Program-made: the position numbers and the translations under genes
Assembly: GCA_964016885.1 (NCBI GenBank)
Contig: OZ024741.1
Location: 101,308,001 to 101,372,000, forward strand
Source of the DNA: Eledone cirrhosa
Taxonomy: Eukaryota
Direction: 5' to 3'
Length of the DNA stretch: 64,000 bases
In this document: piece by piece, positions 17,301 through 47,420 of the stretch
Numbering within the stretch: position 1 is the first letter of the stretch
Layout of the letters: every line of letters begins with the position of its first letter
Notes under the pieces: generated by a model
What the model saw: the letters and a program-made list of their open reading frames with translations, nothing else
Databases searched by the model: none
What the model was told of the DNA's origin: nothing

Positions 17301-17659
17301 CAAAAATCTCCAAGAAGAACAGAAAAGATAGTAGCAGTTATTGCCACAGATACTGAATGAAGATATCTTTGTATTGCTGTGGTTTGATTGGCCTGAGAGG
17401 CTAAGGTGGTGTGCAGGGGTGGATGGGAGAGAAATGGCGAGGTAAGTGAATGTTACGGCTGACTAGCGCCATCCGTTGTTTATAGAAAGCATGAAACAGA
17501 AACATGAAATAGGATACAACCGTTGTTTATAGTAAGCTGTGTAAGTACTTGTTGATAGGAGAGAAAAGAAATTTGTGAGTTAGTAAGTTACAAACAGGCT
17601 TTGAATGATTTTGGAGAAGTCTACATATGTGATGGAGTCAAGCAATATGTTCTACCAAT

Positions 17660-17925
17660 ATACATAATTGTGGTCACATGTAACAACATCCTTAATTGTG
17701 GTCATATGGTCAATTGGTGGGACTACTGTGATCACATGTAAACAACCTTAACTATGGTTATATGGTCAATTAGTGGGAGTACTGTGGTCACATATTAACC
17801 CCTTTAACTGTGATTATATGGTCAGTTAGTGGGACTATTGTGTTCATATGTATCAACACCCTTAACTGTTATTACATCTACCAAACCCATAATTGTTGTT
17901 AATGTGACTACTGTGGTCACATGGT
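17660..17925. repeat. Degenerate minisatellite (tgtggtcacatg / tgtggtcatatggtcaattagtgggactac units)
   Basis: Visible tandem recurrence of ~25-55-bp units. Confidence 0.7.
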
Positions 17926-18081
17926 CAATAAATGTCAAGATAATTCTGACAAAAAACTGGTAACAGAACAAAATCAAATTAATAAAAACTGACCATGTCA
18001 CACTAATGACACCAACAAGTGTCAAACTAATTAACTACACAACAACAATAATCAGTATAGTATAACAATGTTAAAACTTAC

Positions 18082-18177
18082 CTGGTGATCATCAAAAGCT
18101 GGATTGTAAGAAGCTCCAGCATGGGGCAGCTCAATAGCAGGTAACTCAGAACGTTTCTTTAAATACAATTGAGGTGT
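18082..18177 (-). CDS. NOP53: NOP53 exon 6 TPQLYLKKRSELPAIELPHAGASYNPAFDDHQ
   Basis: Diagnostic NOP53 motif GASYNP.F.DHQ; canonical splice sites. Confidence 0.96.
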
Positions 18178-19777
18178 CTGAGAAATAAGAAAATAAATTT
18201 TATATTTATATACATACATACATCATCATCATTTTTACATCCGCTTTTCCTCACTCGCATGGGTTGGACGGGTCCTTTTCAGCACGGCAACTCTCCACAC
18301 ATCGCGATCCATTGTCATCGCCTCTGTGATTTAAGGTCCGCTCTCACAACCTCTGCTTAAGTCTTTCTTGGTCTACCTCTACCATGAATTCCTTCCACTG
18401 GCATTTCCTGGTACTTCTTTAACCAACAATCATTGTCCATGCACATCACATATCCAAATCAATGCAGTGTTCTCTCCTGCACACCACCTTGAATTCTTTT
18501 CAAACCCAGCTTCTCCTTCAACACGTCCAAGCTCTGCCTCTCTCTTAAAATTACATTGCACATCCAATGGAGCATGGTTGCTTCGTTTCTCTCTTTGTTT
18601 CACTACCATCATACAGTAATCCTTTGTACATAGGGAGTAGCTCTCTGAACTGTAAGGGGGTTGGCGTTAGGAAGGGCATCCAGCCACAGTAAACCAAACC
18701 CAAAATGGAGCGTATGAGCAAGACATAGTCACCTGACCAGTTAGTCCTCATAAAGTGACAACCTGTCTAACCCATGCAAGCATGGAAAATAGACATTAAA
18801 CAGTGATTATAACGATATAGATTGTGAAAAATGTAGATAGTTTCTGAGAGAGATTGAAACTTGAATCAAGCTGTTTATTTTTTTCAGTCTATGGAGAAAC
18901 ATGTAAATAAATTATGTTTACATGCTTAAATAAACAAAAGGTGTTTACACACACAATTGTTGCAGATTCAGTTAAATACCTGTACTGTTCATTGAGATAT
19001 GAATTTATAATATCATCACCATCATCATTCAATGCCTGTTTTCCATGCTAAAAAGTGTTGAATGGGTCTTCACAAACTGAGTCAGTATTCAAGCAGAGTT
19101 ACTGACCTCTAAGGAGCTTGGAGTCTGCATCTCTCTTACAACCAATCCAGCAATCTAGTGAGTGCATTTTGTCTTGACAATAGCCTTCCCAACCTTTGGT
19201 AGACAGTGTTTAGCATGTAAATTACCAACATTGGGAAGGTTGTCATGTCGCTGACACTGAATAGTCCATTCTAACTTTTTTTGGTGTGGTTTCTACAGTA
19301 GGAGGCCTTCCTATCGCCAACCACCTTATAAAGTGTACTGGGTGCATTTTTGTGGCACCAGCAGTAGAGAAGTTGTCAATTATTGTCTCAACAGAAGAGC
19401 CCTCACTCTCCTACAAGGGGTGGAGAACATGAGAGAGAGAGAGAGAGAATAAGTGTGATGTTATGGATGCCTGGCAAGTGTGGTGAAATTTGACAGTGAT
19501 GACTAGGAGTGCCACAATAAAATGCACTCGGTACACCCTGAAAAAACACCCATTATGCTCTGTAAAGTGGTGGTTGTTGTGCTATGAAAAAAATGTATCC
19601 AGCACACTCTGAAAGGTGATTGGTATTAAGAAGGGCATCCAACCATAAAAACCATCTGAAAAGAAGGTGACTTCAACTTGAGACAACACATCCAACCCAT
19701 GCCAGCATGGAAAATAAATGTAAAATAATAATGAGTAATTATGATGATGAAATCAATAAACATAGGAGTTTTCCTAC

Positions 19778-19854
19778 CTTTACTCTAATATTGTTGGTAT
19801 ACTCTAAATAATAGGGATCTGCCTTTTCTTCTTCATCTACATCTTTCTTACTAT
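19778..19854 (-). CDS. NOP53: NOP53 exon 5 (D)SKKDVDEEEKADPYYLEYTNNIRVK
   Basis: Phase 1/0; ttttcag acceptor and gtagga donor; parallels human DEFFLEQTKKKGVK. Confidence 0.9.
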
Positions 19855-20192
19855 CTGAAAATTAAACAACCATGAGAGAAAATATATTAGTAATTACAGC
19901 GCTGAATTGGCAGAGTCAATAGAACATTGAGTAGTATAGCATTTGTTCCAGTGATTTGTACCCTGATTTCAAATTTCACTGAGGTCAATTTTGCTCATCA
20001 TTCTTTTGGGATTGATAAAATAAAGCACCAATCCATAATGGTAGATTAGCAGAATTCTTAGAACCAATCTAACATCCAAAGGAAACATTATCATAAGTGG
20101 CTGAGAACAAGAGACATTTAAAATGACAAAAAACAACAGTGCCCATAGACACAGACATAAACAGATAGAGAAAAAAAATGTAATCATCTAAC

Positions 20193-20368
20193 CATTCCAC
20201 AGATCGTAATCAATAATTCTTTCTGAAAAATATTTTGCTTTCTTCTCATTATAGACTTTAATAGCTGTTATACGGTCTTTGATGGTCTTTTCTTCCTTCT
20301 TGCTGAGTTCTCCCTTGAGTAAACGTTCCAGTTGGAAATCTGACACTTTTTTCACAACTCGGTTGGGT
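20193..20368 (-). CDS. NOP53: NOP53 exon 4 (K)PNRVVKKVSDFQLERLLKGELSKK...IIDYDLWN
   Basis: YDLW motif as in NOP53; phase 2/1 consistent with its neighbours. Confidence 0.9.
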
Positions 20369-20789
20369 CTGTAAGAAAAACCAAAACAAAACCAAAACAC
20401 AAATATTAAATAAATTTCATAGTTGCAAATAAATTGAATGCATAACCCCATGAGATGGAAACAAATGGATAATGGCAAATTATCCACCTTTTTCTACCTC
20501 AAGGGTTACACCTTCAATTTAATTGTAACTATTTTAAAGTGATAATTCATGTCATGATTCTTTGCTTGATAGCAAAAGCACTTTGAAATTTCAATCTCTC
20601 ACATACATCATGGATTTTCTATTGTATTAATTTATGGATAACATAGGTGCAGGCATGGATGTGTGATTTAGAGATTTCCTTCCCACTGACAAACTGTATG
20701 GCACTTTGAACAAATGTCTCCTACTATAGTTGTGGGTTAAACAAAACAGAAAATGTAAGGAAGCCAGTTTTGTCTATCTATGTATATAT

Positions 20790-21180
20790 ACAGAGGTTGC
20801 TGACAGCTTTTGTAGCCTAGTTGACCTAATCAGCAATGGGGGAGGATGTTTTAAAAACTTGGTAATGAGGGTAAGAACAGGCTGGAAGAAGTTGAGAGAA
20901 CTAGAACCTCAGTTGACAACAAAGGGCTTTTCTCTCAGAGTGAAGAGTAGATTGTATGATGCTTGCTTGTGAACTGCAAAGTTACATGGCAGTAAAACAT
21001 GGGCTTTAACTGCAGAAGATCTATGAAGCAAGAATGCTCTGATGGGTGTATAATGTTAGTGTGCATGAACGACATAACATAAGCAAGTTGAGAGAAAAAC
21101 ATGGCATAAGAGGAATTGGATGCAGTGCGTTGGGATGGATATGTGATGCATATAAAATGACAGCTGTATAAAGTGTCCCT
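20790..21180 (+). mobile_element. RTE LINE 3' fragment (similar fragments at ~10190-10560 -, ~12040-12242 +, ~18215-18620 -, ~23520-23830 +)
   Basis: Translation RVRTGWKKLREL.PQLTTKGFSLRVKSRLYDAC; related fragments end in (GAT)n/(CAT)n tails. Confidence 0.75.
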
Positions 21181-22369
21181 CACCATCCACTATTACTCTT
21201 TAGTAGCTATTCTCACCATCACTGTACAACCACACCCCTATTTCACCCAGGATCACCTTCACACCCTGTAAATCCTAACAACCACATTACTGAGGACCAC
21301 CCCAGCTCTAAATTTCTAACATACTAGTCATAAACCCTGCTTCTCAGTACCTCTCATCATACCCCACCAGCATGGAGAGGGTTCTTCAGTTGAGTCAATG
21401 ACCAAAACCTAGTGTTGGAGCCATGAGAAATGCACCTATTACAGCCTGTAAGGTGGCTGGCAAAAGGAAGAGCAACATGCTGAAGAAACCATGTCAAAAA
21501 GGATAAGGGGACTCTTCAATTGTGTCAAGGGCACAATAACCTCTCTAGTGGTGGTGGTGATCTATATAACAAATGCACCCAGTACACTTTGGAAAGTGGT
21601 TGATGAAAGGAAGAGCATCTAGCTGTAGAAAACATGCCAAACAAAATATCAGGAGGACGCTTCAGCTGTACCAAAGATATGAAAACGTCCATAGGGCTGG
21701 TGCCACAATAAAATGCACTTGGTAAGCATGGGAAAGTTTGTGAGATGCAGGCCCCTGGCCTACCTGGAGGGTAGTGGCTTCATTTGAGTATACATATACC
21801 TTTGGTTAAGCTACCATGCTTCTATCTCGTCCATTCCAGTTGAAGTACATAGGTTTGTAGTATATTTTTGTCATTATTTATGTAAAGGCTAACTTGTCCT
21901 GTGTATCCTTGTTTTGTTGTGCACCAAAGCTACAGTGATTTCCAAAGGTTGACTGAAGAGAAGGGACTGTTTGCTGTTTGTTTTTTTCCGTTATCTATCC
22001 CCCCCCCCCGCCCCCAATTTATATCCAATATTCTTAGCCATGTGGCCCTTTTTTTTACACCTATCAAAATATAGATTTTACACCACCTGATATCTATCTT
22101 CCTTTTCACTGCATCCCTGTCATTCCTCTTTGTCTTCATACATACGACTGTCGTCCAAATATATTTTCTATTCTTTTCCTTTCTAATTTTTTCTCTTTTT
22201 GGCTAACTACGGTGCACAGCATTTCTATCTTTTCCCTTTCATTGTGTAATTTGCATTGGAATAAATACTATCAACCTTAATCCATCAAAACTAGTGATTT
22301 CCAAAGGAACCTCTAGAAACCACTATAGTTTTGATGTGCCTCCCGTTTTTTGTACCTCTCCTTTTTTAT

Positions 22370-22447
<78 letters not shown>

Positions 22448-23293
22448 CATTTTTATCAAGTTTTAAGGCCTTAAATACTTATTCTTTCCCTTCCAATTCA
22501 CATGCTAGCATGTGTCAGACAAGTTGTCCTGTTGTGAGAAATGCCAGGTCAGGTAACCATGTCTTGTTTATACAGAACTGATTTTGGCTTGGTTTCTACA
22601 GCTGGATGCCCTTCCTAATATCAACCACATTTACAAGTACTAGGTGCTTTTTGTTGTGACACTTACACAACTACTTTACAGGGTGAACTGGACGCTTTTT
22701 ATCCTCTTCCTCATCATCATTTAATGCCTGTTTTCCTTGTTAGAAAGTGTTAGACATGTGACCCAGACCAGTCAGTACTCAAAAGGAGCCTCTTACCACT
22801 AGATGGGCCAAAAGGCCCAAAATATAATTCTGAGCTCTACTCAGTGCATTTTATTGTGTCACCAACACAAGGGACGATGTCAAAGTACCAGTCCATGATA
22901 ATGGATTGGTAGGATTCTTAGAATCCAATCCATCATCCAAAAGAAGCATTATCACACACACACGCACGTGTGTGTACATGCTTGTTTTCCCCCTCCTGCC
23001 ATTTCAAGCTCATGAGAACCTCTCAAGTGGTGGTGTTACAATAAAATGTACCCAGTAAACCCATTCAAGTAAGTGATTGGCATTAGGAAGGACATCCAGC
23101 CATTGAAACCATGCAAAAGACAGTAGTTCTGATTAAATACTGACTTTGTCTTTAACCACCCCACCAACCTAAGTCAGTGTGGAAAAATGTAAGGAAAATG
23201 ATGATGCTCTCAGTTGAAGATGACCATCAAGACCTATTGAATGTCTGTAAAATATTACAAGTGGAGAGTGCAAATCTAATTAAATTCACTTAC

Positions 23294-23384
23294 TTTATTG
23301 GACATGCAATTTTGCCCTTTCGGTACAATTGTGAATGACATTTTAAAGGTTGGTCCGTTTGCCTTCGGCGTCGTCTTTCAGCAG
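23294..23384 (-). CDS. NOP53: NOP53 exon 3 (T)AERRRRRQTDQPLKCHSQLYRKGKIACPI(K)
   Basis: Phase 1/2; tcttcag acceptor and gtaagt donor; PL...L....K...P pattern. Confidence 0.88.
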
Positions 23385-23969
23385 CTGAAGATAAAAAAGG
23401 ACAGTAATGATGCCAATATTAATAGACCACTCCAAATTACGTCACAATATTTAAAATATCTATTTAGACACACATACGAGCCCGTACACATACACACAAA
23501 TATATGATATGTGCATACAAACAGCAATGCTACAACAAAGTGAGATTTGAAGATAAACTGGGCATGAGAGGGGTCAAATGCAGTGTGCAAGAGAGGCGAT
23601 TGCAATGGTATGGAGATGTGATGTGTATAGATGACAGTTGTATAAAAATGTGCAGGGTGCTCAAACTTGATGGAAACTATGGAAGGAGACTTAGAAAAGT
23701 TTAGGATACAGTAATGAAAGCTGACCTCACACAAACCTCTCATTGTTGACATAGGATTGAGATCTCTGGTGATATGCTGTACTGCAGAAAACACACTTTC
23801 CCACATGCACAGGATGAAACTATTAAGTACTCACCAACTAAGTATCACACCTTCCCCATCCCCATCAAATATACTTGCACCCTCCAACCCATGCTTTCTA
23901 CACCCCTGATATACTTCTCCTGTTCAACCCATACATGGAAATGCTCCACACCTGCTCTCCCACAGGGGT

Positions 23970-24400
23970 GCTGCCATGACAAAAAGCACAAAATCCACTC
24001 TGTAAAGTGATCGTGCTGGTAACACGACAGAAAGAGCCCACTCCACCCTGTAAGATGGTCATGCTGGTAACAACAAAAAGCACCCAGCCTACCCTGTAAG
24101 GCAGTCATTTTGGTGCCACAACAAAAGCACCCAGTCCACTCTGTAAGGTGGTCATGCCGGAAACACGACAAAAAGTGCCACGTCCGCCCTGTAAAGTGGT
24201 CGTGCTGGTAACATGACAAAAAGCGCTCAGCTCACCCCTCATGTGGTCATGCCGGGACTACAAAGAAAAGTCTACCCTTTAATGCGGCTGGAGTTAGGAA
24301 GGGCAACCAGCTGTAGAAACAAACCAAAAAGAGAACTGTACAAGCAAAACAACTTGCCTAACTCATGTAAGCATAGAAAACAAGTTAAATGATAATGATC
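23970..24400 (+). repeat. ~39-bp minisatellite array inside an RTE-tailed SINE-like repeat
   Basis: Units acaaaaagcacccagtccactctgtaaggtggtcatgctggtaac, followed by the conserved aggaagggcaaccagctgtagaaac block and a (GAT)n-like tail. Confidence 0.75.
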
Positions 24401-26638
24401 ATCATCATCACTGTTTAATGTCCATTTTCCATGCTGGCTTGTGTTAGACGAGCTGTCTCATTGTGAGACAAGTCAGGCCAGATGACAAAGTTTTGCTGAT
24501 CCAGAACTGATTTGGGGTTGGTTTCCACGGATGGATGCCTTTCCTAATGCCAACCACATTTACAGTGTGTACTGGATGCTTTTTGTCATGACACCTACAC
24601 GACCAACATAGTGTGGACTGGGTGCCTTTTGTCGTGAAACCTACATGACCCCATTAGTGTGCAGAGGAGCTGGGTGGGATTTTATGATATACAAGGTGTA
24701 TGGGAGGGGTGATAGAGGGAAAGATGGCGCAAGTCTTCCAACTCCATTGCTTCCATCAACTCTGAGCTCTCTGCACCTTTTTATACAGCTGTCATCCTTC
24801 ATATACATCAAATGTCCATACTAACGCAATCTCTCCTGCACACTGCATTTGATCCCTCTTATTTCCAGTTCATGTATATTATTATATATTTATACATATA
24901 TGATGGGCTCCCTTACAGTTTTCATCTAACAAATTCACTTGCAAGTTATTTTGTCAACCCAAAGCTATATTAGAAGGGATTTTCCCAATGTGCCACGCAA
25001 TGGGTTGGAACCCCATACTAGGTGGTTGCTAAGCAAATTTCTTAACCACAAAGCAATCTCTGCACCTACTCAAACCTTAGATTAAAACTAAAATTCTATA
25101 TAAAGTAAACAAAATACAATACTGAATTATACAAATTACCTGTGATTTTTTTCTTTGATTTGGAATCATCTTTATCAACAAAAAATAAAATTTCATTGGG
25201 TTTTTCTGAAATAATTCCTCTGAAAAATTCAATTTTAATAGATAATTATAAATTGAAGCTATTGGCAGAATCATTAGATCATTAGATTAAACACTTTGAG
25301 GTATTTAGTTACAGCTCTATTTACTATGCACTCACCATTCTGAGAAGTTGATAAAATAAAAGTACCAGTCAAGTACTGGGGTTGATTTAATCAACTTTTG
25401 CCTCCTCCAAAATGAGAAAACAGTATTCCTTCAAAATTTGATATGCATTTTTTAGCTATTATGATTAAAAATCAATCTTCACATTTCAGGCGCTAGCTAT
25501 GAGCAAATGGAGTGAGCTTATCAGTTGGTTTAAAATTTAAAGAAAATTACATCACCACTACACTCCTCACTGCACACACTCACACGTTCCTAGATGCTGA
25601 CCCCTTGTGAAGTGGTTGGTGACGAGAAGGGCATCCAGCCATGGAGGGCTTGCCAGACAAAGAGTTGGGAGGACCCTTCAGGCTCCCTACTATTTGGTGA
25701 TCTACACGATAAACACGCGCAGTACTCGCAGTAAAGTGGTTGGTGATAGGAAGAGCATCTAGCCGTAGAAAGTTTGCCAAACAAAGGGTTGGGAGGACCA
25801 TCAGTTGTACTACAGACACAACTTCCTCCTTTGCACTCGGTAGAATGTAACACCATACATAAGCAAGGCGATAGATCCCTGGCTTGTCTGGGAGATCTGT
25901 AGCCACCGCTTCAGACCTGTACAACCTTTGCTAGGAGGGAGATAGGACGATGATGATAACGAACTACAAAATCAAGGAACCTAACTTGAGGTATAACCAT
26001 AGCACTTACGTTGATGACGGTTTTCAAAAAAAAAAAAAAAAAAAATTTTTTTTAGTTTCATTAACCCTCATGCAGAACATCCTAATCAAGTGCCTTCACA
26101 GAGAGAACATATTGTATAACATAATCCTGGATAAATTGTTTGAAATTGATGAGGTAGTCATATTTGGAACTCTTACATCATAGGTCTTCTGGTTCAGAGC
26201 TGACCTATAGTTAAACAACATAACCCTCATCCATACTGTGCTAACGTAAACATTATCATGAGAGGATTTTTCCACAAACTCTTCACGATAAAATAATGCT
26301 TTCTAATTCAAACACAAGGCCAACAATTGACTAGTATTTTATTTTATCGACCACGGGAGTATAAAAGGCAAAGTTAACGCAGAGTCGTAACTGCATGCCG
26401 CTAAGCATCCTGTCCTTCGCACTACCAATTCTGCAAACCCGCCACTTACATAGTAATTATATTCTCTTGTATTCCTTCGTCTTTCTGCGAGACACAGAAG
26501 TGCTAAAATCGTCACCGAGAAGGTAAGAGGACAATTAAATGACCTTTCGGTTATTAAACTCTCTAAAGAACGAATTAGTTACTTGATTAATAATGATTTC
26601 TTTATTAGCTATGCAGGGCTAACCTAAGTGTAACTCAC

Positions 26639-26673
26639 TTGGTGTTTCAAAATACAATTTCACATCAAGAATC
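26639..26673 (-). CDS. NOP53: NOP53 exon 2 (35 nt) (G)ILDVKLYFETP(T)
   Basis: ttttgcag acceptor and gtgagt donor. It is the only exon I found that bridges phase 2 (exon 1) to phase 1 (exon 3), and it sits where human has KLFFVD. Confidence 0.8.
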
Positions 26674-26937
26674 CTGCAAAACTAATACAAAACAGAAGAG
26701 CTGATCAATTGCGAAACGCGCGTCACACCTGAATAAACAAACGTAATGAAAATTTGACTGCCCGTCCATACTTATAATTATTGTTATATATATATTTACA
26801 TATAACCAAAGATTAATACAGTTCATTGATTACTCAATGAATATAGTTTTACAATAGTTTAAAAGCACTCTACAAAGAAGTTTTCTGATTAATATTATTC
26901 AGAATATTAATAAATGAAGACATTCACATAATCAAAA

Positions 26938-27010
26938 TATGTTTTATTATATATATTTCGAAGGTACTGTGCTGTTTTTTTTCAGTACGTCCTCGTCAGA
27001 TAAAATACAT
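26938..27010 (-). ncRNA. Type I minimal hammerhead ribozyme (Penelope-type), NOP53 sense strand
   Basis: Minus strand reads AUGUAUUUUAU-CUGACGA-GGACGUACUG(loop)CAGUACCUUC-GAAA-UAUAUA-UA^AUAAAACAU. It has an intact core, a G10.1-C11.1 pair, a palindromic stem III, and stem I of 6+3 bp. Confidence 0.7.
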
Positions 27011-27023
27011 GAATTAATAATTC

Positions 27024-27093
27024 ATGTATTTTATCTGACGAAGACGTACTGAAAAAACAGCACAGTACCTTCGAAATATATATAATAAAACAT
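27024..27093 (+). ncRNA. Second hammerhead copy on the + strand (A10.1.C11.1 mismatch)
   Basis: CUGACGA at 27035-27041, GAAA at 27073-27076; the first stem II base is A rather than G. Confidence 0.5.
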
Positions 27094-27439
27094 ATTTTGA
27101 TTGTGAATGTCTTCATTTATTAATATTGTGAATAATATATATTTACATATAGATATATAACCGTAATATGCGAAATGAATACAGTAAATACTGCAAGATA
27201 ATTTAATTTTCTTATTCCGAAGTTTATTGTTAGTTACACACTTTTTGTCGTAATTATTAAATTACTAATATTAAGTGTTAACTAGTTTTCTTTTGCAATC
27301 AAATGAATATTTTCGGTTGTTCGCTCTACACGGAATTTAAGGAGCAAATAAACACGTGTCACACTATATTTGAGCATACACACAGGAAGCGATGTATAGA
27401 ACAATATAAACAATAATTTTGTAGGTGTCAAAAACTTAC

Positions 27440-27582
27440 CCAGTTCGTTCCTCGTGACTCACATCTTCCAAATATTCTTCTACATCTTTAATATCAGTTT
27501 TCCTCCAAGATTTCTTTTTATTTTTAGAAATATGCAAACGCTTTTTTTTACCTGAGACGTCTTCCATAATCATGGTGGACAT
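27440..27582 (-). CDS. NOP53: NOP53 (GLTSCR2/PICT1) ribosome biogenesis protein, exon 1 MSTMIMEDVSGKKKRLHISKNKKKSWRKTDIKDVEEYLEDVSHEERT(G)
   Basis: N-terminal NKK..WR...V..(F/Y)LEDV...ERT motif of NOP53; donor gtaagt. The start codon could be any of three in-frame ATGs (27582, 27573, 27567). The 14 exons sum to 1293 nt including the stop. Confidence 0.94.
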
Positions 27583-27595
27583 TAAAAGGCCGACT

Positions 27596-27670
27596 AGAGT
27601 TATCTCCCCTTGGTTTTTCCGGTTCTGAAATTTAAGTGGAAAATTCTTATACTTTCTTCGTATTGTAAGT
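27596..27670. promoter_or_regulatory. Putative NOP53 promoter (possibly bidirectional)
   Basis: AGAGTTATCTCCCCT (27596-27610, shared with ENDOG), ETS-like TTCCGG (27617-27622), and a + strand gtaagt donor-like site at 27665. Confidence 0.5.
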
Positions 27671-29050
27671 TTATCTAGTTTGATACGAAACTGCTTTGTA
27701 AGTTCTTTTTCATTATTAATATCAAATATATTATTAATTCAATAATCTATTAATATTGATGACTTTATCGTACAAAGGTAGCCGGTTGCGTTTAACATGA
27801 TTGCTTAATTTTTTTCGATTTACTAAAACAAAAGATTATTAACTATGGCATATTTCTATTTTAAAATAATACTACAAACTAGTAGGAACAATTCAGGTTG
27901 AATCAAAGTTAAGAAAATATATAAGAATTATACTTGTTTATACCCATACAGCTATATTTACAGGATAGAACACCGATTAATTATTGAAAGCGTCCCAAAT
28001 ATAGTATGTTTTTGTCTGTGCTACAGACATGCATTTTTCACTGTCCAGTGTTTTCTCATGCTTGTTGTTGTACCCATGCTTAACCTTAGTTAAGCATTTA
28101 AGGTATGACCATTTTGTATAAGTATAGTACCCTTTTAGGACAGTAGAGTTTCTCTTGTGGTAGACTTTAGTCGAAGATGGGTCGATTAAATGGAAAATAA
28201 CCACGAAAACCATTTGGGTGAAAAGTGATTATTTAAAACGTAGTAGGTATCTGCATTAGTTCAGTGCCAAATAAAATGCCTTATGGTATTTATGGCTTTT
28301 TACCGCACTAGGAAAATATGTCTTTCACCGTTCTGCCGTTGTTTAACCCCAGGTCACCTTTACTGAAGAAACCTGTGATCAACGGGTTCATCCTCTGTGT
28401 GTGTGTGTGTGTTTTATCATTTACTAACATGTCATTTCTTATGACAGTATGTAGGGTGTGATTCGAGGACGTTTTACTTTATGTATATAAAATAAGACAA
28501 TAATGTACACGCCTTGTTAGAGTCCTAAGATGATTTTAAAAAATATGAAACTCATATCCTACTGATTCGTCTTGTTAAGCTAATTTATTGGTAGGCGACA
28601 ATTGAATGTAAAGAGACTGTTGTGATGAAGCAAGTTAGAATCAATAAAAATGCAGAAGTTTATCATTCAGAAAAATATTTTCACAAATAAATCTTTCCGT
28701 TTATCAATTAACAAAAATTGAAAAATGCTGAAGATCTACAACGCAAAAGGAGGTTACTTTCATTTTCGTTCACTGTCATTTGTCTGCCATTTTATATATC
28801 TAAAAACGAAACCTCCTTGATACTTCTTGCAGATTGAGTGACTGCTTAGAGAGCTCGTTATGGACAGAGCCTCATGTATTTAGAGAAAGTCTTCTTCTTA
28901 GTCCATTAATTCCTGATTGTCGTGGAAGCAGAGTCATCAAAACTTCCAACGGGCCCTGTCAGAAGCAACCGTCTCCAACTTTTTCGGAGAAGTCATCATC
29001 ATCATCATTTTACGTCTGCTTTTCCCTGCTTGCAAGGGTTGGACAAGTCA

Positions 29051-29090
<40 letters not shown>

Positions 29091-29096
29091 AATACA

Positions 29097-29180
29097 TAAT
29101 TATTTCATCTGATGAACGAGTTGGACCTTTCTGTAAGAATCGTCTAGTTTCTTGAAACCTTTGGTAAATAGAATAATTAT
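29097..29180 (+). ncRNA. Degenerate hammerhead ribozyme-like motif
   Basis: CUGAUGA (29109-29115), G-U-rich stem II, GAAA (29154-29157), stem III ACC-UUU-GGU with A at the cleavage position. Stem I pairs only with a 1-nt offset. Confidence 0.45.
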
Positions 29181-29282
29181 ATTGTTATTTATTATGTAAT
29201 TAAATAGCTCTGTACAATACATAGAGCACTCTTCTTTCCTTTATCTTTTCTACGGAAATACTTAACAGACATATATATATTC

Positions 29283-29960
29283 TCAAGAGAGCTTTGGCCC
29301 GTACGAACATCCCTCAATCTTAGAACCATCTGGGTTGTCCAGAAGTGACGGCAAAAGACCTGACGGCCTTACCCCGTGCCCCTGGTCGAGAGGCAGGTGC
29401 CTTGTCTGGGACGTCACTGTTAGTGACTCTTTTGCTTCCCACATCCTGGATGCTGCGGTTAGGACGAGAGCCACAGCTTCCGCAGCCGAGCGGAGTAAGG
29501 CCCTCAAATTCTGTGATCTGTCGGCCAGCTACATTTTCAGCCTGTGGCTTTCGAGACGTTTGGAGGAGTCGGGCCGCTGACTGCGAGATTCCTCTCTTCA
29601 CTCGCGGCTCGCCTAATAGAGGTAATTGGCGAATCTCGCGAGGGCGCTTGGTTGTTCCAGCGCATTAGCCTCGCCATCACCCGAGGCAACGCTGCGAGTG
29701 TGCTGGCTTGCCTCAAAAATCATTAGAGAGGTTGCCCGGTACTCCTCGCGACGCTACTGTCTTTTGCTCTGGTGTTGACTCGGTTGTTCACCCCTCCCTT
29801 TACATTTTCTTTAATGTTGCAACATTAAAAGACTATATCCTTCTGAAAGAATCGCTAGCAATTTATAATGTTATCTAAGCATTTGTAATGTTATTTATGT
29901 ATATATTTAAAACATATTTGTTATGTTATTCTACTGTAAATTTATTTATGTGCTTTGTAT
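29283..29960 (+). mobile_element. CRE-clade non-LTR retrotransposon, 5'-truncated (restriction-like endonuclease domain plus 3' UTR), family A
   Basis: [45 protein letters not shown] and, after a frameshift, AFETFGGVGP...WLFQRISLAITRGNAASVL. This is the RLE PD..D motif; flanked by (TA)n. Confidence 0.88.
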
Positions 29961-30434: not shown

Positions 30435-31205
30435 ATCACCGTTTAACGTCCATTTTTCCACGCTAGCATGGATGAGATGGGTTGTCCTGCTGTGAGACAA
30501 GTCAGAAAAGATGACCGTGCCTTGCTTATTCAGGACCTTTTGGGAGCTGGTCTTTACGGCTTGATACCCTTCCTGACGACAATCACATTCACAGTGTGGA
30601 CTAGGTATTTTTTATCGTATCACAAAAACGACCACTTTACAGTGTGGGCTGGACTCGTTTTGTCGTGACACTAACACGACCACTTTACAGTGTGGACTGG
30701 ACGCTTTATGTTGGGGTACCAAAATGATCACTTTACATGTTGGGTTGGGTGTGTTTGTCGTCTCACCATCACGACCGCTTTACAGGGTGGTTTAGGCATT
30801 TATTGTGACACATGTGTCACTGGCATGACCCTTAACAGCGTGGGCTGGGTGCTTTTTGTCATGTCACCGTCACAACCATAGGCTTACAGGACAAACTGGC
30901 TACTCTGTCGAGTCACTTACCTGACCATTCCACATGGCGAATTGGACAGTTTCTGTTGTACCACTAACACGACCACTTTGCAGTGTGGGCTGGGTGCTTC
31001 CTGTCATGTAACCGACATGACTACTTCAATGGAGATTGGGTGCTTATTTGTCATGTCTCCAGTACGACCACCTTATAGGGAGGGTTAGGTGCTTTTTTGT
31101 CATGACACCAACATGAGCATCTTACATGGTGGACTAGGGGCTTTAGTTGTGTCACCAGCGTGATCACCTTATGGGGTCGACTGAGAGCTTTTAGCCATTT
31201 CAGCA
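30435..31205 (-). repeat. RTE-tailed SINE-like repeat with an expanded ~39-bp minisatellite
   Basis: Many units cacgaccactttacagtgtggactgggtgctttttgtcgtgacac; same family as 23970-24400 in the opposite orientation. Confidence 0.75.
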
Positions 31206-31489
31206 GCATTGTAGGAGAGCATGCACAGCTTTCCATACTTGTATACATGGCTTGATCAAGTGAGGTGCATCAAAGTGGGTTAATGCAACTCTACAAATCA
31301 TGCCACGCCCATCAAATGAAGCAGGCAGAAAATTTACCTGCATATTATGTGACATGACATATAAATCACTTACGGATTTGATGAATCGTCTAAGGCGACA
31401 TCAATGAAAGCAACACAAATAACACATTTTTGCCAATATCTTTTTTTTTTTTGTCAAAAAAGTGGTCATCTCCTTATAATATATAACTA

Positions 31490-31900
31490 GCAATTCCTCT
31501 GTCTGTCTGTCCGACAGTGGAAACACGTGCGCGCGTGGTTGCTATCTCTCTCTCTCTCTCCAGCTATCCCTCTCTTTTAGTCTGTCTGTTTCTCTCACTC
31601 TCACTCTTTCTCTTTGTAACACACTAACATTCCTCCCCTCTATCGCTGTGATGAATGGGGAGATGGAGGAGGAGGAAGAGAGAGTCACTTCGTCACTTCA
31701 CCTCTGCCTTTCTTTCTCTTCCCTCTCACTCCCTGCCGTCGACCACTGATTCCAACAACCAGCGTTCTAGGCCAGCACGTAACACCTGCGTTCCCAGCCA
31801 TGGCACGCGCGACCTTGGAGTAGTTACCATGGAGATCTAGCCAGACACAGCCGAGTTCTTTGAATTTACAGACGACAACTTTAAGACTGGCTTTTGTGTT
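31490..31900. promoter_or_regulatory. CpG-rich promoter-like island (second copy ~43670-44080)
   Basis: CACGTG (31524-31529), GCGCGCG, (CT)n tracts and an RFX X-box-like GTTACCATGGAGAT (31823-31836) in otherwise CpG-poor DNA. Confidence 0.45.
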
Positions 31901-32439
31901 TTAACAAACTCACTGGGGCTGAGCATATAATATATATATATGTGTGTATGCGTGCGTGTGTGTGTGTATGCGTGTGTATTATATGTGTGTGTGTTATATG
32001 TGTGTGTGCGTGTGTGTGTTATATGTGTGTGCGTGTGTGTGTTTTATATATGGGTGTGTGTCATCATCATCATTATTTCATTTTACGTCCGCTTTCTCCC
32101 TGTTTGCAAGGGTGGGACGGTAACTGATTTTGGCTTGATTTCTACAGCTGGATGCCCTTCTTAACACCAACCTCATTTACAGTGAGTGCTGGGTGCTTGT
32201 TTCTGTGGCGCCTACACGTCCACTTTACAGTGTGGGCTGGGTGCTTTTTTGCCGTGGCACCTCCACGACCACTTTGCAGTGGAATGATAGGGACCCCAGT
32301 CCCTATCATCTCATTTCTACAGCTGAGTAAACTGGAGCAATGTGAAATAAAGTGTCTTGCTCAAGGAAACAACACATCACCCGGTCTGAGAATTGAACTC
32401 ACAAGGCCAATCCTCTAACCACTACGCCATGTGCCTCCA

Positions 32440-32510
<71 letters not shown>

Positions 32511-32912
32511 ATATATATATTATATATGTATATTATGTGTGTCTCTCTATATATATACATATATATAGGTTTAAGTGTGTATATGTGTGTATGTATGAGT
32601 GTGTGTTAGCGTATGTGTCTGTATGCGTGTGTGTCTGTCTGTGCGTGTGTCTGTGTGTATCTGTGTAAGTGTTTGTGTGTGTGTACAGGAATTCATAAGT
32701 TTCCAAAAATATGTCTATGCTTAATTTTTCTTAAAAATTATATACTGGTTCTTCCTGTCAGAGATAATAATCTGATTTGAGAATAATGAATCTCAAAATA
32801 TGAACATGGGTGTATATATATATATATGTATGTGTGTGTGTATCTGTGTTTGTGTGTGTGTTAAATATATATCGACTAGCAGAAAACCACCCACCGGGTG
32901 GTTTTCTGCTAG

Positions 32913-34193
32913 TCTATATATATAAAACTGAGGATGTCTGTCTGTGGGTGTGTGAGTTTGAATCCGTAAAACTAGAGAAGCACCCAACCGACTGTTTTCA
33001 AACTTTACACATGTAATACTTATGTTCCAGGGAGTGTTCTGAGCAAAAGAAATTTCAAATTTTCAATGCCCTAGAGACAGCATCAGGTGATTTAGCGATC
33101 TCTCTCTATAATCCTTAGTCTTTCTCTTTTTAGATAGATACATACATATAACGTCGCGCCCTTATAATATCTGTCTGCATTACGTCACTTCCTACAATTC
33201 GCTCTTCGTCTAGAACGCACCCTTATAATATCTGTCTGTATGTCTGCATCGCACTCGGCGCGTCAATGTATGGCTGTTAAACGGGCTACCAGTGGAAGCA
33301 ACCGTAACACCCTCCAAGGGCCCTTGAAATAACTGATGGTGACCCTTTCGTTTAGGGCTGCCAGTGAACACACACACGCATCGGGGCCCATTTTATTGCA
33401 CCATTCCTCTTTAAATTTGTTAAATTATACCCAGTTTGGTAAACGTTTGTCCAGTTGCGTTTATTTACTAAGGTGCGGTGGACTCCTTCGAGAAGGTTCC
33501 ACATGCTGTCTGATTGCACGTCATGCCTTGCTCAAGCATTGCAGACTTCCCTCTGACATAAGTGGTGACATCTGTCCTGCTGACTCGTGTCACTTTATTA
33601 AAGTACAAAAGCACCAAGCCGATTTTCTCCAGAAGGAGAAGCATACCTAATACTAATTGCATCAGAGCATTCGGTTTATTTTCTTTACATATTGTCCATC
33701 ATGCAGTTTTTCCACGATTAGGTCTGTTGGCGGCCCGCGTTATGTTTCAGGGAGTGTTATGCACATAAAAAATTCAACTTTTTGATCCCCCAGGGCCCGC
33801 ATTAGGTGAAAAACTGCGTTTTTTCAGCTTTTTAGGGGTATTTTGAGGCGTTACGTCAGACCGATTTCCTTGAAATTGTAACTATGTATTAGTCAGTCTC
33901 TTCTTCATAAGAGCAAAAAAAATCCAACTATTTTATGGCCTAGGGCCCGCATTAGCTGAAAAACTTCATTTATTCAGCTTTTTAGGCGTTACGTCTAGCC
34001 GATTTTCCCGAAATTGAAAACCTGCATTTTTCCTGCTTCACCGAGGAAAATCTTAAAGATTATCCAGCCAACAGAGTATTCGGTTTATTTTCTTTACATA
34101 TTGTCCAGGCATGAAGTTTTTCCACGATTAGGTCTGTTGGCGGCCCGCGTTCCAAAATACCTTATCCCGTGCAACGCCGGGTACTACTGCTAG
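32913..34193 (+). mobile_element. Non-autonomous Helitron (1281 bp)
   Basis: 5' TCTATATATATAAAA...tgtctgtctgt; 3' GC-rich hairpin cccgtgcaacgccggg followed by CTAG|T; internal direct repeats (33664-33740 vs 34073-34150); no Rep/helicase ORF. Confidence 0.85.
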
Positions 34194-35242
34194 TACTATA
34201 TATGTATATATGTATTTATAGACGTCTGATCACACACACTTTGCTCGACAATAATTGTTTTAGCTCCGATCGAGAAAAACTAATCAGAGGCATTCCAGTC
34301 GTGGTTACATGTTTCTTTGTTTTGTGTATGCGTGGCAACTGCAAGATTACACCGAACGTGATGTTGCCGATAGCGAATGATGAAAAACAACAAACTAACA
34401 TAAAATTAAGAAATATATAAGTATTAAAACACACATTAAGTGAGTGGTAGAATATTCCTTCCTTTTAAATTATCTATACTATGGGTGTAATATGTTTTGT
34501 TTTGGAGATTATAATATATTGTCTGCAGTATTTGTATTTTCTCTACAGTTTTGTTTGTAGTATAAATATGTTAAATGTCATATGTTAGTATTAAACGTGT
34601 TTTTGCGGCTGAGTAATTTGTATTTACGTGGCCAGTGTTGGTTTGTTTACTCGATTATCTTTATTTCGATGTTGGGTGGGGTTAAGAGACTCCCTCAGGC
34701 GCGCGCGCACACACATATAAGTTCATGATTGAAAAGGGCGTACAAAGCAATGCAAAAAGTTTTATTATTTTCATTTTTGCCCAATTCCAGTACGTTATTC
34801 AATATACACACGTATGATATAATAATTATAGTTTTCATTTTACTTGTAAATTCTGAGAAATTACTTTCTCTTTCTAAGAATAACGCTTATCCTTTTATGG
34901 GAGGTTTTCTGACCAATTACTATGATAAAATAAAGTGATAATGAAAATACTCGATGCGAGAACATCATTGTGAGTTGAGAACATTTCTCTTCATTCTTTT
35001 AATTTTTGCCTTTCAAATTGTACCCTTGTTCATTCAAGATATTTCGAAATCACCGGTCTGTTTCTCTCTGCAAGAACATCCGTGGTTTTGTTTGTTTTTC
35101 TCTCTCTACAGAACAATTGAACTCGGTAAATATCCACAGTATTATCTTTCTTAAACTTTATTATGCAATGTATTTCTAGTTTGAATTTAATATTTGTATA
35201 TAATTTGTAAGTATTATCAGCATATTCCTCATTACTCTAAAC

Positions 35243-35287
<45 letters not shown>

Positions 35288-36304
35288 ATACTTGGGGAGG
35301 GTCATATTTGTGTAATAATATTGCCAGAATTAATAACAGAACACACTCATATATATATATATAGTGAATGATGACAAAAAAAAAAGAAAAGAAAAACAAA
35401 TCCCGCCGAGGTTAATTTTGCCTTTCATTCTTACGGGGGCGATAAAATAAAGCACCAGTAATGTACTGGGATAATTGCTGGCCTTGTGCCAAAAGTAGAA
35501 ACAATTATAGAATACCCACTTCGATTTCAGTGTGAAAAAATATTTTTTGTGCGTTATTAACTAATCTCACCTACAAGATGCTCGCAATTGACTTTTTCCC
35601 CAGGAGTGAGTGGGGTAAGTATGCCCCCTGTATCTCGGAGTTTTCTCTAGGATTTTTTTTTTCGTGTTATCAACGAATATGACCTCCAAGCCATTTGGAA
35701 ACGAGTAGCTTTGTAGAAAAAGGAGCGGAAAGATTATCGGAATTTCGCAGATCGACATGCCCTCGCGTTTGACGGGAAATAATTAATTTTCTTGTGTTTT
35801 TTTCACGTGTTATCAATATCAACTAATCTGACCCCAAGATACTCGCAATCGATTTTTTTTCACGGATTAGGGTTAGGATTTCCGTTTTTATATTATTGAA
35901 TGATTTTATACTTGTAGATGACTTATTAATATAACTGAGTGAGATTACGATCTATTTGGATTTTGCCGGCTGAAAAAATGGCATTTTTCGGGCTTTATCT
36001 TTTAATGTTGTTTTTTTTTTTAGTCAACTAGGGGAAAAGGCAGTGCTCATGACTCTTTTCAATACATCTAAAACTGGTAGAAGGGACCATTAAAACCTGG
36101 AGACCTGGCTCAATACTTGCAGCGGAGTGGGCACCGCCAAAATATTAGATGGTGACGGTATTGAACCAGGCGACGGGTTAAATCTAGGTGCTGTGGGAAA
36201 CCCTAATCAAACGGACGTATGATTAATGGCTTTCTAGCTGTAATCATCCCATAAATTTGTATGTATGTGTATATATATATATATATATATACATACATAT
36301 ATAT

Positions 36305-36560
36305 ATTCAACTTTGTTTTTATTGAATGATTTAAATTATTATAATTATAATCATGTTTCACATAAAAGTGGAATTCATGGAACCTTATAAAAATATACAA
36401 AGCGAAAAAAACAAAACAGTTCAACAGTAAGTGCATCAATCGGTCACACACCACAAGGGGTAAACGGAACTTCCTTCTAATACTTTTTGGGACAAGCCAA
36501 CACGCTCGCTGCATTACCATCAGTGATAGCTAGGCTAAGGCGCTGAAACAGCCAATATTT
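36305..36560 (-). mobile_element. CRE family A short 3' fragment (copy at ~48450-48705)
   Basis: Minus-strand translation WLFQRLSLAITDGNAASVLACPKKY*; the 3' UTR ends at (TA)n. Confidence 0.8.
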
Positions 36561-37212
36561 GTATGTTACAGACTACATTGTCCAATATATAATTTAAAAA
36601 AAAAGAATGTAGGTTGTATTTGGTGAAATTTGTTACTATTTCTAGTACACATATCTATTTATTGACTGCGTACATGCTTTATTCGTTGACTCTAGTTGAT
36701 ATTGCTGAATTGACAAAGATAGTGCAGTTCATTGATAAAATAAATACGTGTAATAATTTATCTGGCAAATCCGAAACCTCAACCCACTTTCTTTGCAAAT
36801 TCACACAATCTTTCCAGATATAGCGTTTGCTGATAGTAAATAGATCTGATTAAAAGCATTAAATTATTTGTCAGTGACGTGTAGCAAGGCTTCTCAGTTC
36901 TTTTTTCACTCCATTCTCTCCATTTCCGGCCACTCACATGCTTGCAGTACTTAAAAAGGTTTTATTATATTGAAATAAACGATGTACATGAAATTACCTA
37001 ATAGCAAAGTTCACATTTTTCCCCGAAACAAAAATGCTAACAATATAAATAACTTCAAATCACAAACGCAAAAGCCATAACTGTTAAAATTTAGCACACT
37101 ATAACAGAGTGGAGGGGACTCTTGAATTTAGTAAGACAACCTCTTTAATTAAAATCATGCAAGGTCAATAAGATAAATAGTTTGTTTTCAATATACATAT
37201 ATATATACATAT

Positions 37213-38610
37213 ATGAATCACTACCTCCTTACGGACAACTGACACTGCACACCAGGTTCAAACAGACGAGCCTGCCATCGCCTCCATCTCTCTGTATTAT
37301 GAGCAAATGGGTCCCCACATGTTGGCCGCCCAGCGTTCAGAATGGAGAAGGCTCTTCCCCAGAGGATGGTAAGGGAGATGCACTGGAAGAGCCATTCCAT
37401 CTCGCGAGGCCTACACCTGTGGCTAGCCAGCTCAGCACCTATGGTGTTAAGTAGGGAGGTAGCCCTAGGGCCAAGGACACCAGAAGTCCAATGCTAGGGG
37501 CTCGACTGCAAACCTGTTGGAGAGCCACCGATAGTTGGAGAGTTTACCCTCATCAGCCCGAAGTGTAGCAGAACCCGGGTTAGTCGCAGACCGCACCAGG
37601 TTGCGGCTGGAGAATGTGTCGCTGCAAGTGACATCCTAGACGAGGAGTTTTTCACTGGAGCGGGAAGATTGTCATACCACCTGGCCTTTTGCCATCCCCT
37701 CGGTCCAGCCTCACCAGCTCGAGCTGGGAGGGGAAGCCTGCAGCATCCTAGCCATTCTTTATGACCTCGTTGAAGGCAGCATGGTGTGGATGGTGGCCAG
37801 CACTGTAGCGACAGCAAAGTAGGTGGAGGACAAAAGTGTCCACGGTGGATCCGCAGCGACATTTGTGTGGCTTGCAGATCCGGAGGTCAAGCCTCAGGGA
37901 AACCCCGGTGTGTAGGTTATCATTGTCCAGCTGCATGCCAGTGAAGGAGGGTAAGGCATGGAGCCAGGCACCGCTGTAGGGTTGTGTGGCTGCGTGAAAA
38001 CATGCAAAGCTGTGCTGGTGAGCTAGCCTGTCTGAGGCCAGGTTGCACTAGATGGCATCCCAAATACTCTGGGGGGACTTGACGTCAGCAGGGGGAGAAG
38101 GAGGGACGTCTACTGGGCTAAGTCCAAGCCAGTTCCATGTCTCAGGCGCCTCACGTTCCTCGATCACAGTGGGTTTCATTGTGTTTAGGAAAACCTTGTT
38201 GACGAAGACGCGGCATGAGGTTACTGACTAAAGAAATGCTGGCAAAGCCAGTGAGATCAGGGACCGGAAGCCAAGGCCACCATATTTAACAGGTAAGGTG
38301 GCCTGTTGTCATCCAATGTCAAACCTGATGTTGCATAACTTCTCAGCTGTCGCTCGGATACAAGTGTCGAGGTCAGCAAGGAAAGTTGCATGGCTGTAGC
38401 ACTCACTGAGCACTATGAAGAGTATAGAAGAACTGCAGCATGGCGAAGCAGTTCCTCAACAGAAAGAAGACTGGGTGGGCGTCAATCATACCCAGTTGGC
38501 TCGTGAGGGTCTTATGATGCTAGAGCAGATGGCCGGCGGGATCGGTGACCCGAGGATGAAGACATCCTCTTTACTGGAGATGTAGGCTGCAAAGCACTCA
38601 GAATCATGGT
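37213..38610 (-). mobile_element. CRE-clade LINE relic, family B (post-RT region, CCHC finger, RLE) (copy at ~49358-50755)
   Basis: ILGSPI, then LRLDLRICKPHKCRCGSTVD...HLLCCRYSAGH.PHHAAFNEVIK (CCHC), then GVLGPRA...EWLFQCISL; multiple frameshifts; ends at (TA)n. Confidence 0.85.
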
Positions 38611-38689
38611 GGTGGCACGAATAATGTACCCACTCCGCGCTGTAAAGTAGTTGGTGATAGGAAGGGCATCCAGACAAAAACCCAGCTCC

Positions 38690-39420
38690 CAAAAAATGAA
38701 ATATATTTAATTAAATATTTAACATAAAAATATAGAATCAAAACAAAAGAAAATATTAAGTCAAGTGTGTTAATCGGTCACACGCTACAAGGCGTGGTGG
38801 ATCTTCCCTGTAATACTTTTGAGGCAAGCCAACACACAGGTAGCGTTATCACCAAACACCCTCATGAGCATCACTTAATATCTCGGTACGGCGAGTTGCC
38901 AATGATGGCACTAACTCCATTGTCAGTGGCCTGGCTCCTCCAAACGTCTTGAGCACCACAAGGCTGGAAAAATACTTTGTCGATAATTCTTGGTATTTTA
39001 GAATTTACCACAGTATCCAGGGTGTGGGAAAGAGCAAAAGAGTCACTGACTGTGGTGTCTCAAATGAGACATACCTCTTACCCAGAAACAAAGGGTAAGA
39101 CCATCTGCTTTCTTCCTATCAACTCTGGACAATCCAGCTGTCTCCAAAATTGAGGGAATTATTACCTGAGCTAGGGCCCGCTAGTCACTAACAATTTGCT
39201 CTAGGCATCGATGATATTACTAAGATAGGAGCTGACCTGGATTTGAATATCTGGTATCTTGATGATGCTTGTTTCAGAGTGCTCTAGATAAGGTCCTTGC
39301 AACTGCGCAGACGATGATTAAGAAACTTGGTTGTAGGAGTCTCCACGTCAGCAGCTCCAAATGCGAGCTCTGGCTCCTCAAACAACCAGCTTCACATCAG
39401 CAGACTATAGACCTGAGAGC
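38690..39420 (-). mobile_element. CRE family A element with a 5' inversion: RLE/3' end on - (38690-39182) joined to an RT fragment on + (39171-39420) (copy at ~50837-51567)
   Basis: Minus strand: RALAQVIIPSILETAGLSRVDRKKADGLT...TVSDSFA. Plus strand: LGPA...FALGIDDI...LDLNIWYLDDA...SKCELW. Confidence 0.8.
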
Positions 39421-40123
39421 AAAATTATGGAACAAAAGTATTCAAATGTGCAGTAGAGTTCTGTAGCACCTGAGGATCAATTTTTCACCATATTTCATAG
39501 ATCTAGCTAAACATGCAACTAGAAACCATGGGATTGTGCAAAAAGAATTAAAGGAGACATTGGTAATCATTGCACACAATTAGATAACATTTTTTATTTA
39601 ATAGAATTTATGTGATGTATTGATAGATCCATTTATAATTTGTTATAAATAATGTTGGATTTGAGTTGGAAATGGCTGACTATAAAATGAAATTGAAAGA
39701 AAATAAAACTGACAATAAAATGAAAGTTAATTTAACAAAATGGTTGCCACTAACCCTAAAATCTTTTGTTATATTTCTAATGAAATATACTGCATCAGAA
39801 TTTAAAATAATTTTCAAAATAATCAACAATTTGAAGGGATTTAATAATATAATTAACTTTCTCATTATTAAGCTAGTAGTTAGAACAAAGCTTTAAGGTT
39901 CTTAAATAAAATTATGATAGAAGGCTTTTAAATAAATACAGATATTTCAAAGTAAACAGTTTTTTATCATTGAACATTTAATACTTGTCTGGAATTTGTC
40001 AAAATATCAGATACTTTTCAGTTTCATTTTATTATTGTCTATATCTAACTTGATTCTGTATGAATGCCTAATTATTTTAAAATAACAGAACTATGGTTAT
40101 AAAGGTTGGGTTGGGGTTTCACC

Positions 40124-40359
40124 ACTCTGCAGTAATAATTGTTTCTACTTTTGGCACAAGGCCAGCAATTATACCAATATATTACTGGTACTTTATTTTA
40201 TCGACCCCGTAAGGATGAAAGGCAAAGTTAACCTCGGCGGGATTTGAACTCAGTCTGTAAAGGGACTCTGCAGTAATAATTGTTTCTACTTTAGGCACAA
40301 GGCCAGCAATTACACAGTGCATTACTGGTACATTATTTTATCGACTCCGCAGTAATAAT
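40124..40359 (-). mobile_element. Two truncated Deu/Nin-domain SINE copies separated by a triplicated target sequence
   Basis: actctgcagtaataat at 40124 and 40265 and actccgcagtaataat at 40344 bracket two SINE pieces. Confidence 0.7.
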
Positions 40360-41620: not shown

Positions 41621-41697
41621 GATAGAGTGAGTCTATTCTAAAATATGCTACAGACTTAGTTATCTTGTGTATTTAAAAAAAAAAGTAAGAGTCTATG

Positions 41698-43320: not shown

Positions 43321-43354
43321 ATTAGAGTAAGTAGGATTTCTAAGTATAGATCTC

Positions 43355-44607: not shown

Positions 44608-44659
<52 letters not shown>

Positions 44660-44951: not shown

Positions 44952-44982
<31 letters not shown>

Positions 44983-47375: not shown

Positions 47376-47420
<45 letters not shown>

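Follow-up and report, generated by a model that had tools for sequence, protein, structure and literature searches.

Dual hammerhead ribozymes on opposite strands, 100-700 bp apart, have been described by Cervera and De la Pena 2014 (PMC4209133) in metazoan Penelope-like elements (PLEs), whose hammerheads showed low activity in vitro. The arrangement of copies as inverted pairs is already published for PLEs of the Hydra clade. The account of this clade in Craig et al. 2021 (PMC8557442) includes inverted 5'-truncated copies, one-sided tails and a member from Octopus bimaculoides with a different hammerhead, and its supplement gives Penelope-13_HM, where an inverted copy, truncated at its 5' end, goes with hammerheads on both strands. 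Among other PLEs, Penelope of Adineta vaga has palindromic junctions and a TATA/TCACT promoter (PMC3846280). In the Anolis Poseidon element PAc, two start sites of reverse transcription make the tail, and cleavage was unnecessary for insertion in vitro (PMC11167929). Palindromic Harbinger repeats are a source of double-stranded RNA (dsRNA) and hyper-editing in frog (PMC5625713). Further context is given in PMC13282606 and bioRxiv 10.64898/2026.07.22.740005. The main text of the O. vulgaris repeat paper (PMC13282606) contains neither 'hammerhead' nor 'Hydra'. Our literature search retrieved no publication on the family described below or on an intronic ribozyme in NOP53; Repbase or Dfam may already list the family.

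The locus analysed here belongs to a family that resembles the Hydra clade (PMC8557442) in its C-terminal GIY-YIG, its DKT, CxCX5C, CxxC and CxH motifs, its (TA)n targets and its 3' hammerhead. The family differs in several respects. The hammerhead listed for Hydra-1_Obim in PMC8557442 has another sequence, and stem II of this family comprises 3 bp, a C.C mismatch and 6 bp, with an AU palindrome as stem III. The tail is ~94 nt long, against the usually cited 30-40 bp, a ~1.1-kb 3'UTR brings the unit to >3 kb, and the RWK position reads QWR in the one copy read. Like the metazoan PLE hammerheads of PMC4209133, those of this family are of type I, with a long helix II and a short palindromic helix III, and they lie in the terminal repeats (pLTRs), with thousands of truncated copies and dual motifs on opposite strands; unlike them, they need no bulged base before stem II. 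Inverted pLTRs, palindromic junctions, target-site duplications, a tail at one end, a TATA box and TCACT initiator in the pLTR and two discrete 3' ends are shared with Adineta vaga Penelope (PMC3846280) and Anolis PAc (PMC11167929). These two belong to other clades, and unlike them the copy studied here lacks both ORF and promoter.

This copy lies in a 64,000-nucleotide stretch of the genome of Eledone cirrhosa (the window). An original prediction, made from the sequence alone, had placed a palindrome with a hammerhead on each strand in intron 1 of NOP53, had linked it to PLEs and had proposed that it may act as a self-cleavage/dsRNA switch of the gene.

A retroelement insertion in NOP53

The gene lies on the minus strand (Pfam PF07767, E=1.6e-7). 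It has a single locus in the genome, where ten coding stretches were mapped with cephalopod homologues; the closest named homologues of the first exon are those of Argonauta (80%) and Octopus (77%). The first coding exon (27440-27582, minus strand) is followed by a GT donor at 27439. The second (25140-25219, minus strand) has AG before and GT after it, and exon mapping thus gives a first intron after the start codon of 2,220 bp (25220-27439, minus strand). Since NOP53 is on the minus strand, the insertion sits in this intron, as predicted. It starts ~300 nt past the donor, and the hairpin is 1.6 kb from the acceptor.

The predicted near-perfect foldback of ~247 bp (26892-27138) is real: as minus-strand RNA it folds at -167.5 kcal/mol, and an alignment of its arms (124 columns) shows 2 substitutions and 2 two-base indels. 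These boundaries describe the foldback, but they miss the full unit, in which the minus arm runs on for ~87 nt to 26805 as a tail. The whole insertion measures 330 bp (26805-27134) and lies in a TA-rich site between exact 17-bp target-site duplications (26788-26804 on the left, 27135-27151 on the right). Its two parts are pLTRs of a Penelope-like retroelement, each truncated at the 5' end, which meet 5' to 5'; neither an ORF nor a promoter is present, only the two pLTR ends. We placed the arms against a natural family copy and counted positions from C3 of the hammerhead. The pLTR on the strand of NOP53 (26805-27016, minus strand) covers family positions -18 to +201 and ends in a tail outside the foldback (26805-26891, minus strand) that matches the 3' extension of family copies. 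The other, without a tail (27019-27134, plus strand), covers -15 to +107. Both are truncated downstream of the promoter-like TCACT site of the family.

At the arm junction (27012-27022), a self-complementary 4-mer stands on either side of 3 extra bases. Most inverted pairs have a looser junction than this one, whose sequence occurs at a single locus of the genome. Measured against the family majority, the minus arm is free of substitutions over its ~125-nt foldback part, where a 2-nt loop insertion is the sole change. The plus arm has 2 substitutions and a deletion; in the minus-arm tail, whose family length is ~94 nt, there are 3 substitutions and a 5-nt deletion. The lack of substitutions in the foldback part leans toward the original prediction, although the counts are too small to test.

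Other inverted repeat pairs are also present in the span of NOP53. In intron 2 (24000-24660), 48-nt tandem repeats form an inverted pair, a possible further source of dsRNA, and similar arrays occur at 30590-31220. Upstream of the gene, the window holds a 12.2-kb tandem duplication (31163-43358 and 43355-55505) of 99.2% identity, which is either a recent segmental duplicate or an assembly artefact. Two open frames at 62053-63999 (plus strand) presumably resemble the endonuclease and following region of an RTE-type LINE.

Hammerhead motifs on both strands

Each arm contains CUGACGA, stem II, GAAA and UAUAUA-UA, as well as a strand that can pair with the bases preceding CUGA. We found the type I core complete on both (C3 U4 G5 A6 N7 G8 A9, G12 A13 A14, A15.1-U16.1, H17), as predicted. 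The motif on the minus strand (26938-27010) has C3 at 26999, the pair G10.1-C11.1 and a predicted cut at 26948/26947, after AUA. Its counterpart on the plus strand (27024-27094) has C3 at 27035, N17 at 27084 and an A10.1.C11.1 mismatch at 27042, where most family copies have G; this exact variant occurs 33 times in the genome. The cut site and the state of pair 10.1-11.1 on either strand agree with the original prediction. The same holds for type I and for the short palindromic stem III, but not for the description as minimal, since stem II is long. A second register of stem II, with one bulged base after A9, fitted the subfamily sequences worse by eye than the direct register and was rejected.

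The Rfam search suggested in the original prediction gave weak support. For the 1.3-kb region 26400-27700 it returned 22 matches, all below the gathering threshold, most of them to generic miRNA hairpins and none to a hammerhead, and Hammerhead_1 scored 17 bits on the isolated minus arm (gathering 34, E=0.065). We discarded a miRNA reading of these matches, as generic matches to miRNA hairpins are a by-product of any long hairpin. Our covariance model R1, which is bound to find the two arms from the way it was built, detected only two other sites in the window, both weak.

A high-copy family of inverted pairs

The genome-wide copy count proposed with the original prediction describes a dispersed repeat. 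The arm used as a query yielded 1,163 first-look candidates. A 22-nt pattern of the core has 8,118 exact matches in the genome and its reversed control none, which excludes a chance origin of the motif. A pattern for a sister subfamily has 6,635 matches, and a 27-nt pattern specific to the subfamily of the NOP53 copy has 920 exact ones.

Inverted pairs were present in 35 of the 56 loci that we examined, a share that applies to young copies because these loci were best matches. Close inverted pairs numbered 7 in the first 100 of the 8,118 core-pattern matches and 18 in the first 100 of the 920 subfamily matches, always minus-then-plus. Scaled up, we infer that the palindromes of this family number in the hundreds genome-wide. 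TA runs flank most paired loci, the targets being (TA)n, and the position of the symmetry axis differs from locus to locus. Over the 35 pairs, the mean arm divergence is 0.021 per site, and the NOP53 pair, with its 2 substitutions in 124 columns, is average. Hence, the NOP53 palindrome is the usual insertion form of the family and nothing sets this copy apart. A ribozyme motif in a pre-mRNA intron recalls the HDV-like ribozyme of CPEB3 and the vertebrate intronic hammerheads. Those are single-copy and conserved across species, whereas the NOP53 motif pairs with its own antisense and has thousands of recent copies beside it.

The 3' ends of the copies fall at two sharp positions. Among 101 aligned pieces, 44 end at +100 to +119 (around +107) and 47 at +190 to +201, and 39 begin at -70 to -61 (near -67). 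The commonest 5' end of short copies is an initiator-like TCACT site, which a TATA-like box precedes by ~30 nt in all eight copies examined for it (L008, L014, L016, L030, L046, L054, L055 and L072). These ends suggest that a short, non-autonomous RNA of ~270 nt may be made from the downstream pLTR. Uncut RNA started at the pLTR promoter is the probable source of many short copies, because they span both sides of the cut. No inverted pair among the aligned pieces had a tail on both arms. In three loci (L007, L013 and L024) the inverted part is the whole or part of a tail only and the other arm is a tail-less pLTR, each piece occurring once, an arrangement that resembles twin priming.

Ends did not pile up at the predicted cut, with 4 starts and 3 ends within +40 to +59 among the 101 pieces. 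The first 30 loci had been selected for whole arms, where ends defined by the cut could not show. Of 29 loci selected by their tail, 25 were examined: the start of one (L083) is no more than 3 nt from the predicted cut, and another (L081) folds back beside it. By a rough estimate, 2 in 25 is about what scattered truncation would give. Copies are solo or in inverted pairs rather than in the head-to-tail tandem units of non-LTR retrozymes, and the hammerhead sits inside the copied unit and not, as in a retrozyme, at its ends.

Link to the reverse transcriptase-endonuclease ORF

Longer copies of the family continue through a ~1.1-kb 3'UTR into an ORF. Two of them, interrupted by stops and frameshifts and hence read in each frame separately, have the orders inverted pLTR, pLTR, ORF, 3'UTR, pLTR (L046) and reverse transcriptase (RT), endonuclease, 3'UTR, hammerhead (L048). 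Their motifs are YRDD, DKT, CxCX5C, YIG, CxxC and CxH. DKT stands in place of DKG, in L046 as SDKTNNL in frame 2, and likewise in Hydra-1_Obim. CxCX5C is in the linker, and CxxC and CxH stand around a conserved E and N, with G at the third C in L048. No CCHH was found in the ORF alignment, judged by eye, and the N-terminal RWK position reads QWR in L046 (RRVQWRA), a single degraded copy. The RT fragment matched RVT_1 with 24.7 bits (cut-off 29.6, E=2.2e-5); the endonuclease had no Pfam match. The RT part has 23 longer homologues at E<=5e-40, and all six that we read also carry the endonuclease. The family further shows the traits of pLTRs, namely direct and inverted order, 5' truncation, a tail at one end and target-site duplication.

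The retroelement is Penelope-like (EN+), and its motifs, which match those listed for the Hydra clade in section 11 of PMC8557442, place it tentatively in that clade, the RWK reading and the Pfam results weighing against a firm assignment. The Penelope-like origin and inverted termini of the original prediction are borne out, as the repeat continues into an RT-endonuclease ORF in L046 and L048 and inverted pairs are usual. The linkage to an RT/GIY-YIG ORF that it had suggested looking for is seen in these family copies, the copy in the window having no ORF.

Other observations concern related elements. A 799-aa frame in L050, considered as a candidate ORF, was mostly TA repeat. Asparagine-rich stretches flank the thumb-linker region of the ORF on both sides in four copies (L032, L048, L054 and L057) and recall the N-rich inserts of rotifer Penelope elements. 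The endonuclease fragment, used as a query against the whole genome, gave 54,573 first-look candidates, of which 150 were scored, and related elements may therefore be very abundant. The window itself holds a second repeat between TA runs (29090-29285, plus strand), ~1.5 kb upstream of the start of NOP53, whose hammerhead-like motif at 29109 is weak (20.6 bits, E=0.065). Pieces related to this repeat were found at five loci, with an inverted pair in L033, and it probably represents another Penelope-like family.

Conservation of the hammerhead fold

We collected 55 motifs from three families with one pattern, one misparsed row (L100) included. In stem II, standard pairs occupy the first three positions in 50, 52 and 53 of the 55, respectively, and the C.C mismatch follows in 51. 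The pair 10.1-11.1 is G-U in 26, A-U in 16 and G-C in 8, so that G-C is a subfamily trait. Covariation was studied in 30 of these motifs, hand-picked for diversity; the rows are related, and double changes are not independent events. Stem positions were paired in 96.1% of 510 cells (98.3% in stem I, 94.1% in stem II and 98.3% in stem III), against 37-59% in slid controls, and none of 500 shuffles reached as high a value. Double changes occurred in 11 of the 17 pairs, none of them in stem III. CUGA, G8-A9 and GAAA were invariant over the 30 rows, which agrees with the conservation of the core among genomic copies on which the original prediction depended. Since stems I and II covary across sister families, the alignment indicates that the hammerhead fold was probably kept in the history of the element, although, the rows being related, the shuffle result is not to be read as a probability. 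A third hammerhead family (L095:1334-1424 and L130:409-499 on the plus strand, L053 near 8171 on the minus strand) shares the AU-palindromic stem III but differs in stems I and II, and its cut would follow AUC.

Folding and editing of the hairpin

In our folding models, which are without helicases or proteins, the hairpin constrained to form the hammerhead has -80.9 kcal/mol against the -167.5 of the free fold, a cost of ~87 kcal/mol. The active fold is not the best one outside the hairpin either: the lone minus arm has -3.9 kcal/mol in the active fold and -11.8 in the best (~8 apart), and a double-hammerhead dimer has -20.4 against -27.4 for an alternative fold. When the growing transcript was folded, a near-perfect duplex of ~120 bp zipped up once the sense arm appeared, before the core was complete. 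The models thus reproduce the dsRNA-locked ribozyme, made antisense arm first, of the original prediction. They do not make it a special trait, as the order 'antisense arm first' holds in any 5'-to-5' pair on either strand and is therefore a matter of geometry, not design.

Simulated editing never closed the energy gap to the active fold in 320 runs. The gap was 49-86 kcal/mol when edited adenosines were read as G and 7-76 kcal/mol when they were left unpaired; the smallest value (6.8 kcal/mol) came at 80% editing with edited bases unpaired. The four core adenosines were intact in 2-3 of 40 runs at 50% editing and in none of 40 at 80%. Modulation of the switch by A-to-I editing, as had been proposed, finds no support in these simulations, where the gap persisted in every run and core adenosines were removed.

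Discussion

We consider it very probable that the insertion is a back-to-back pair of 5'-truncated pLTRs of a PLE with Hydra-clade motifs, its hammerheads predicted to be locked in a hairpin, and a likely neutral passenger removed with the intron. The element's endonuclease would have cut a TA-rich site on both strands, and target-primed reverse transcription would have begun at +201 and +107, the two 3' ends seen across the family. The two cDNA products would have stopped early and been joined at the self-complementary 4-mer; alternatively, a single cDNA folding back on itself by self-priming would give the same outcome. During transcription of NOP53, the antisense arm would come first and pair with the emerging sense arm, so that the catalytic core would never form. 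ADAR probably acts on the hairpin, but the core would lose more from editing than it would gain by release. As the hammerheads are predicted to be locked in the hairpin, the insertion is likely neutral rather than a gene switch; this neutrality is deduced from a lack of signal in one genome.

The switch itself would require that editing, a helicase or a protein opens the hairpin, so that the minus-strand hammerhead cuts the NOP53 pre-mRNA and tunes its output. If true, it would be a dsRNA-gated ribozyme acting on octopod ribosome biogenesis, and a new way in which a retroelement controls an essential gene. The copy in the pre-mRNA does have an intact core with G10.1-C11.1, the mismatch being in the other arm, and the motif lies close to the first donor. 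In the literature, hyper-editing is very high in octopus (PMC5625713), an intronic ribozyme is reported to affect its host gene CPEB3 (PMC10919898), and one PLE hammerhead is protein-assisted (PMC11167929). However, the palindrome is in the usual form of its family, as at 35 of 56 loci, with average arm divergence, and from the pair counts one would expect equivalent palindromes in the hundreds. The active folds of monomer and dimer both lie above their alternatives in the models, simulated editing kept the gap while mostly losing the core adenosines, and animal PLE hammerheads are poor cleavers in vitro (PMC4209133). Co-option as a switch thus seems highly improbable to us. We see a small chance, somewhat larger than for the switch, of an unselected side effect in which hyper-editing of the hairpin, or its binding as dsRNA, alters the splicing speed or nuclear retention of intron 1, with no role for the ribozyme. 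The long duplex predicted to form co-transcriptionally would allow this, and PMC5625713 describes palindromic repeats as strong ADAR targets in frog and dsRNA as abundant in octopus. Yet NOP53 contains further inverted repeat pairs in its span, and the hairpin stands off from both donor and acceptor by the distances given above.

The least credible reading, to which we give almost no weight, is that the palindrome derives from a MITE or other DNA transposon, or is an assembly artefact, with an incidental likeness to hammerheads. A short, inverted, TA-flanked repeat of high copy number whose Rfam hammerhead score is below gathering would fit this, but the arms are of unequal extent, their symmetry axis is not at a fixed place in the repeat, and longer copies run into an RT-endonuclease ORF. 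Against an artefact, the arms differ at 4 places, and contigs of a public run, possibly of the source sample, cover both flanks (26061-26727 and 27092-28386), no listed contig spanning the junction. Over 17500-28500, the contigs of three runs (1 sample, 1 study) have repeat-inflated depth and were uninformative on editing, expression or an empty-site allele.

The NOP53 locus itself, as one copy of an insertion of known kind, is of little weight. Taken together, the self-folding copies, which number in the hundreds, may account for some of the excess dsRNA and hyper-editing noted for octopus in PMC5625713, although by rough length the share of these subfamilies in octopus dsRNA could be only minor. 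The value of the family is modest: this high-copy element of Hydra type ends sharply at two 3' positions and starts just as sharply, on the 5' side, at a promoter-like site. These ends make it good material for studying how Penelope-like elements form inverted ends.
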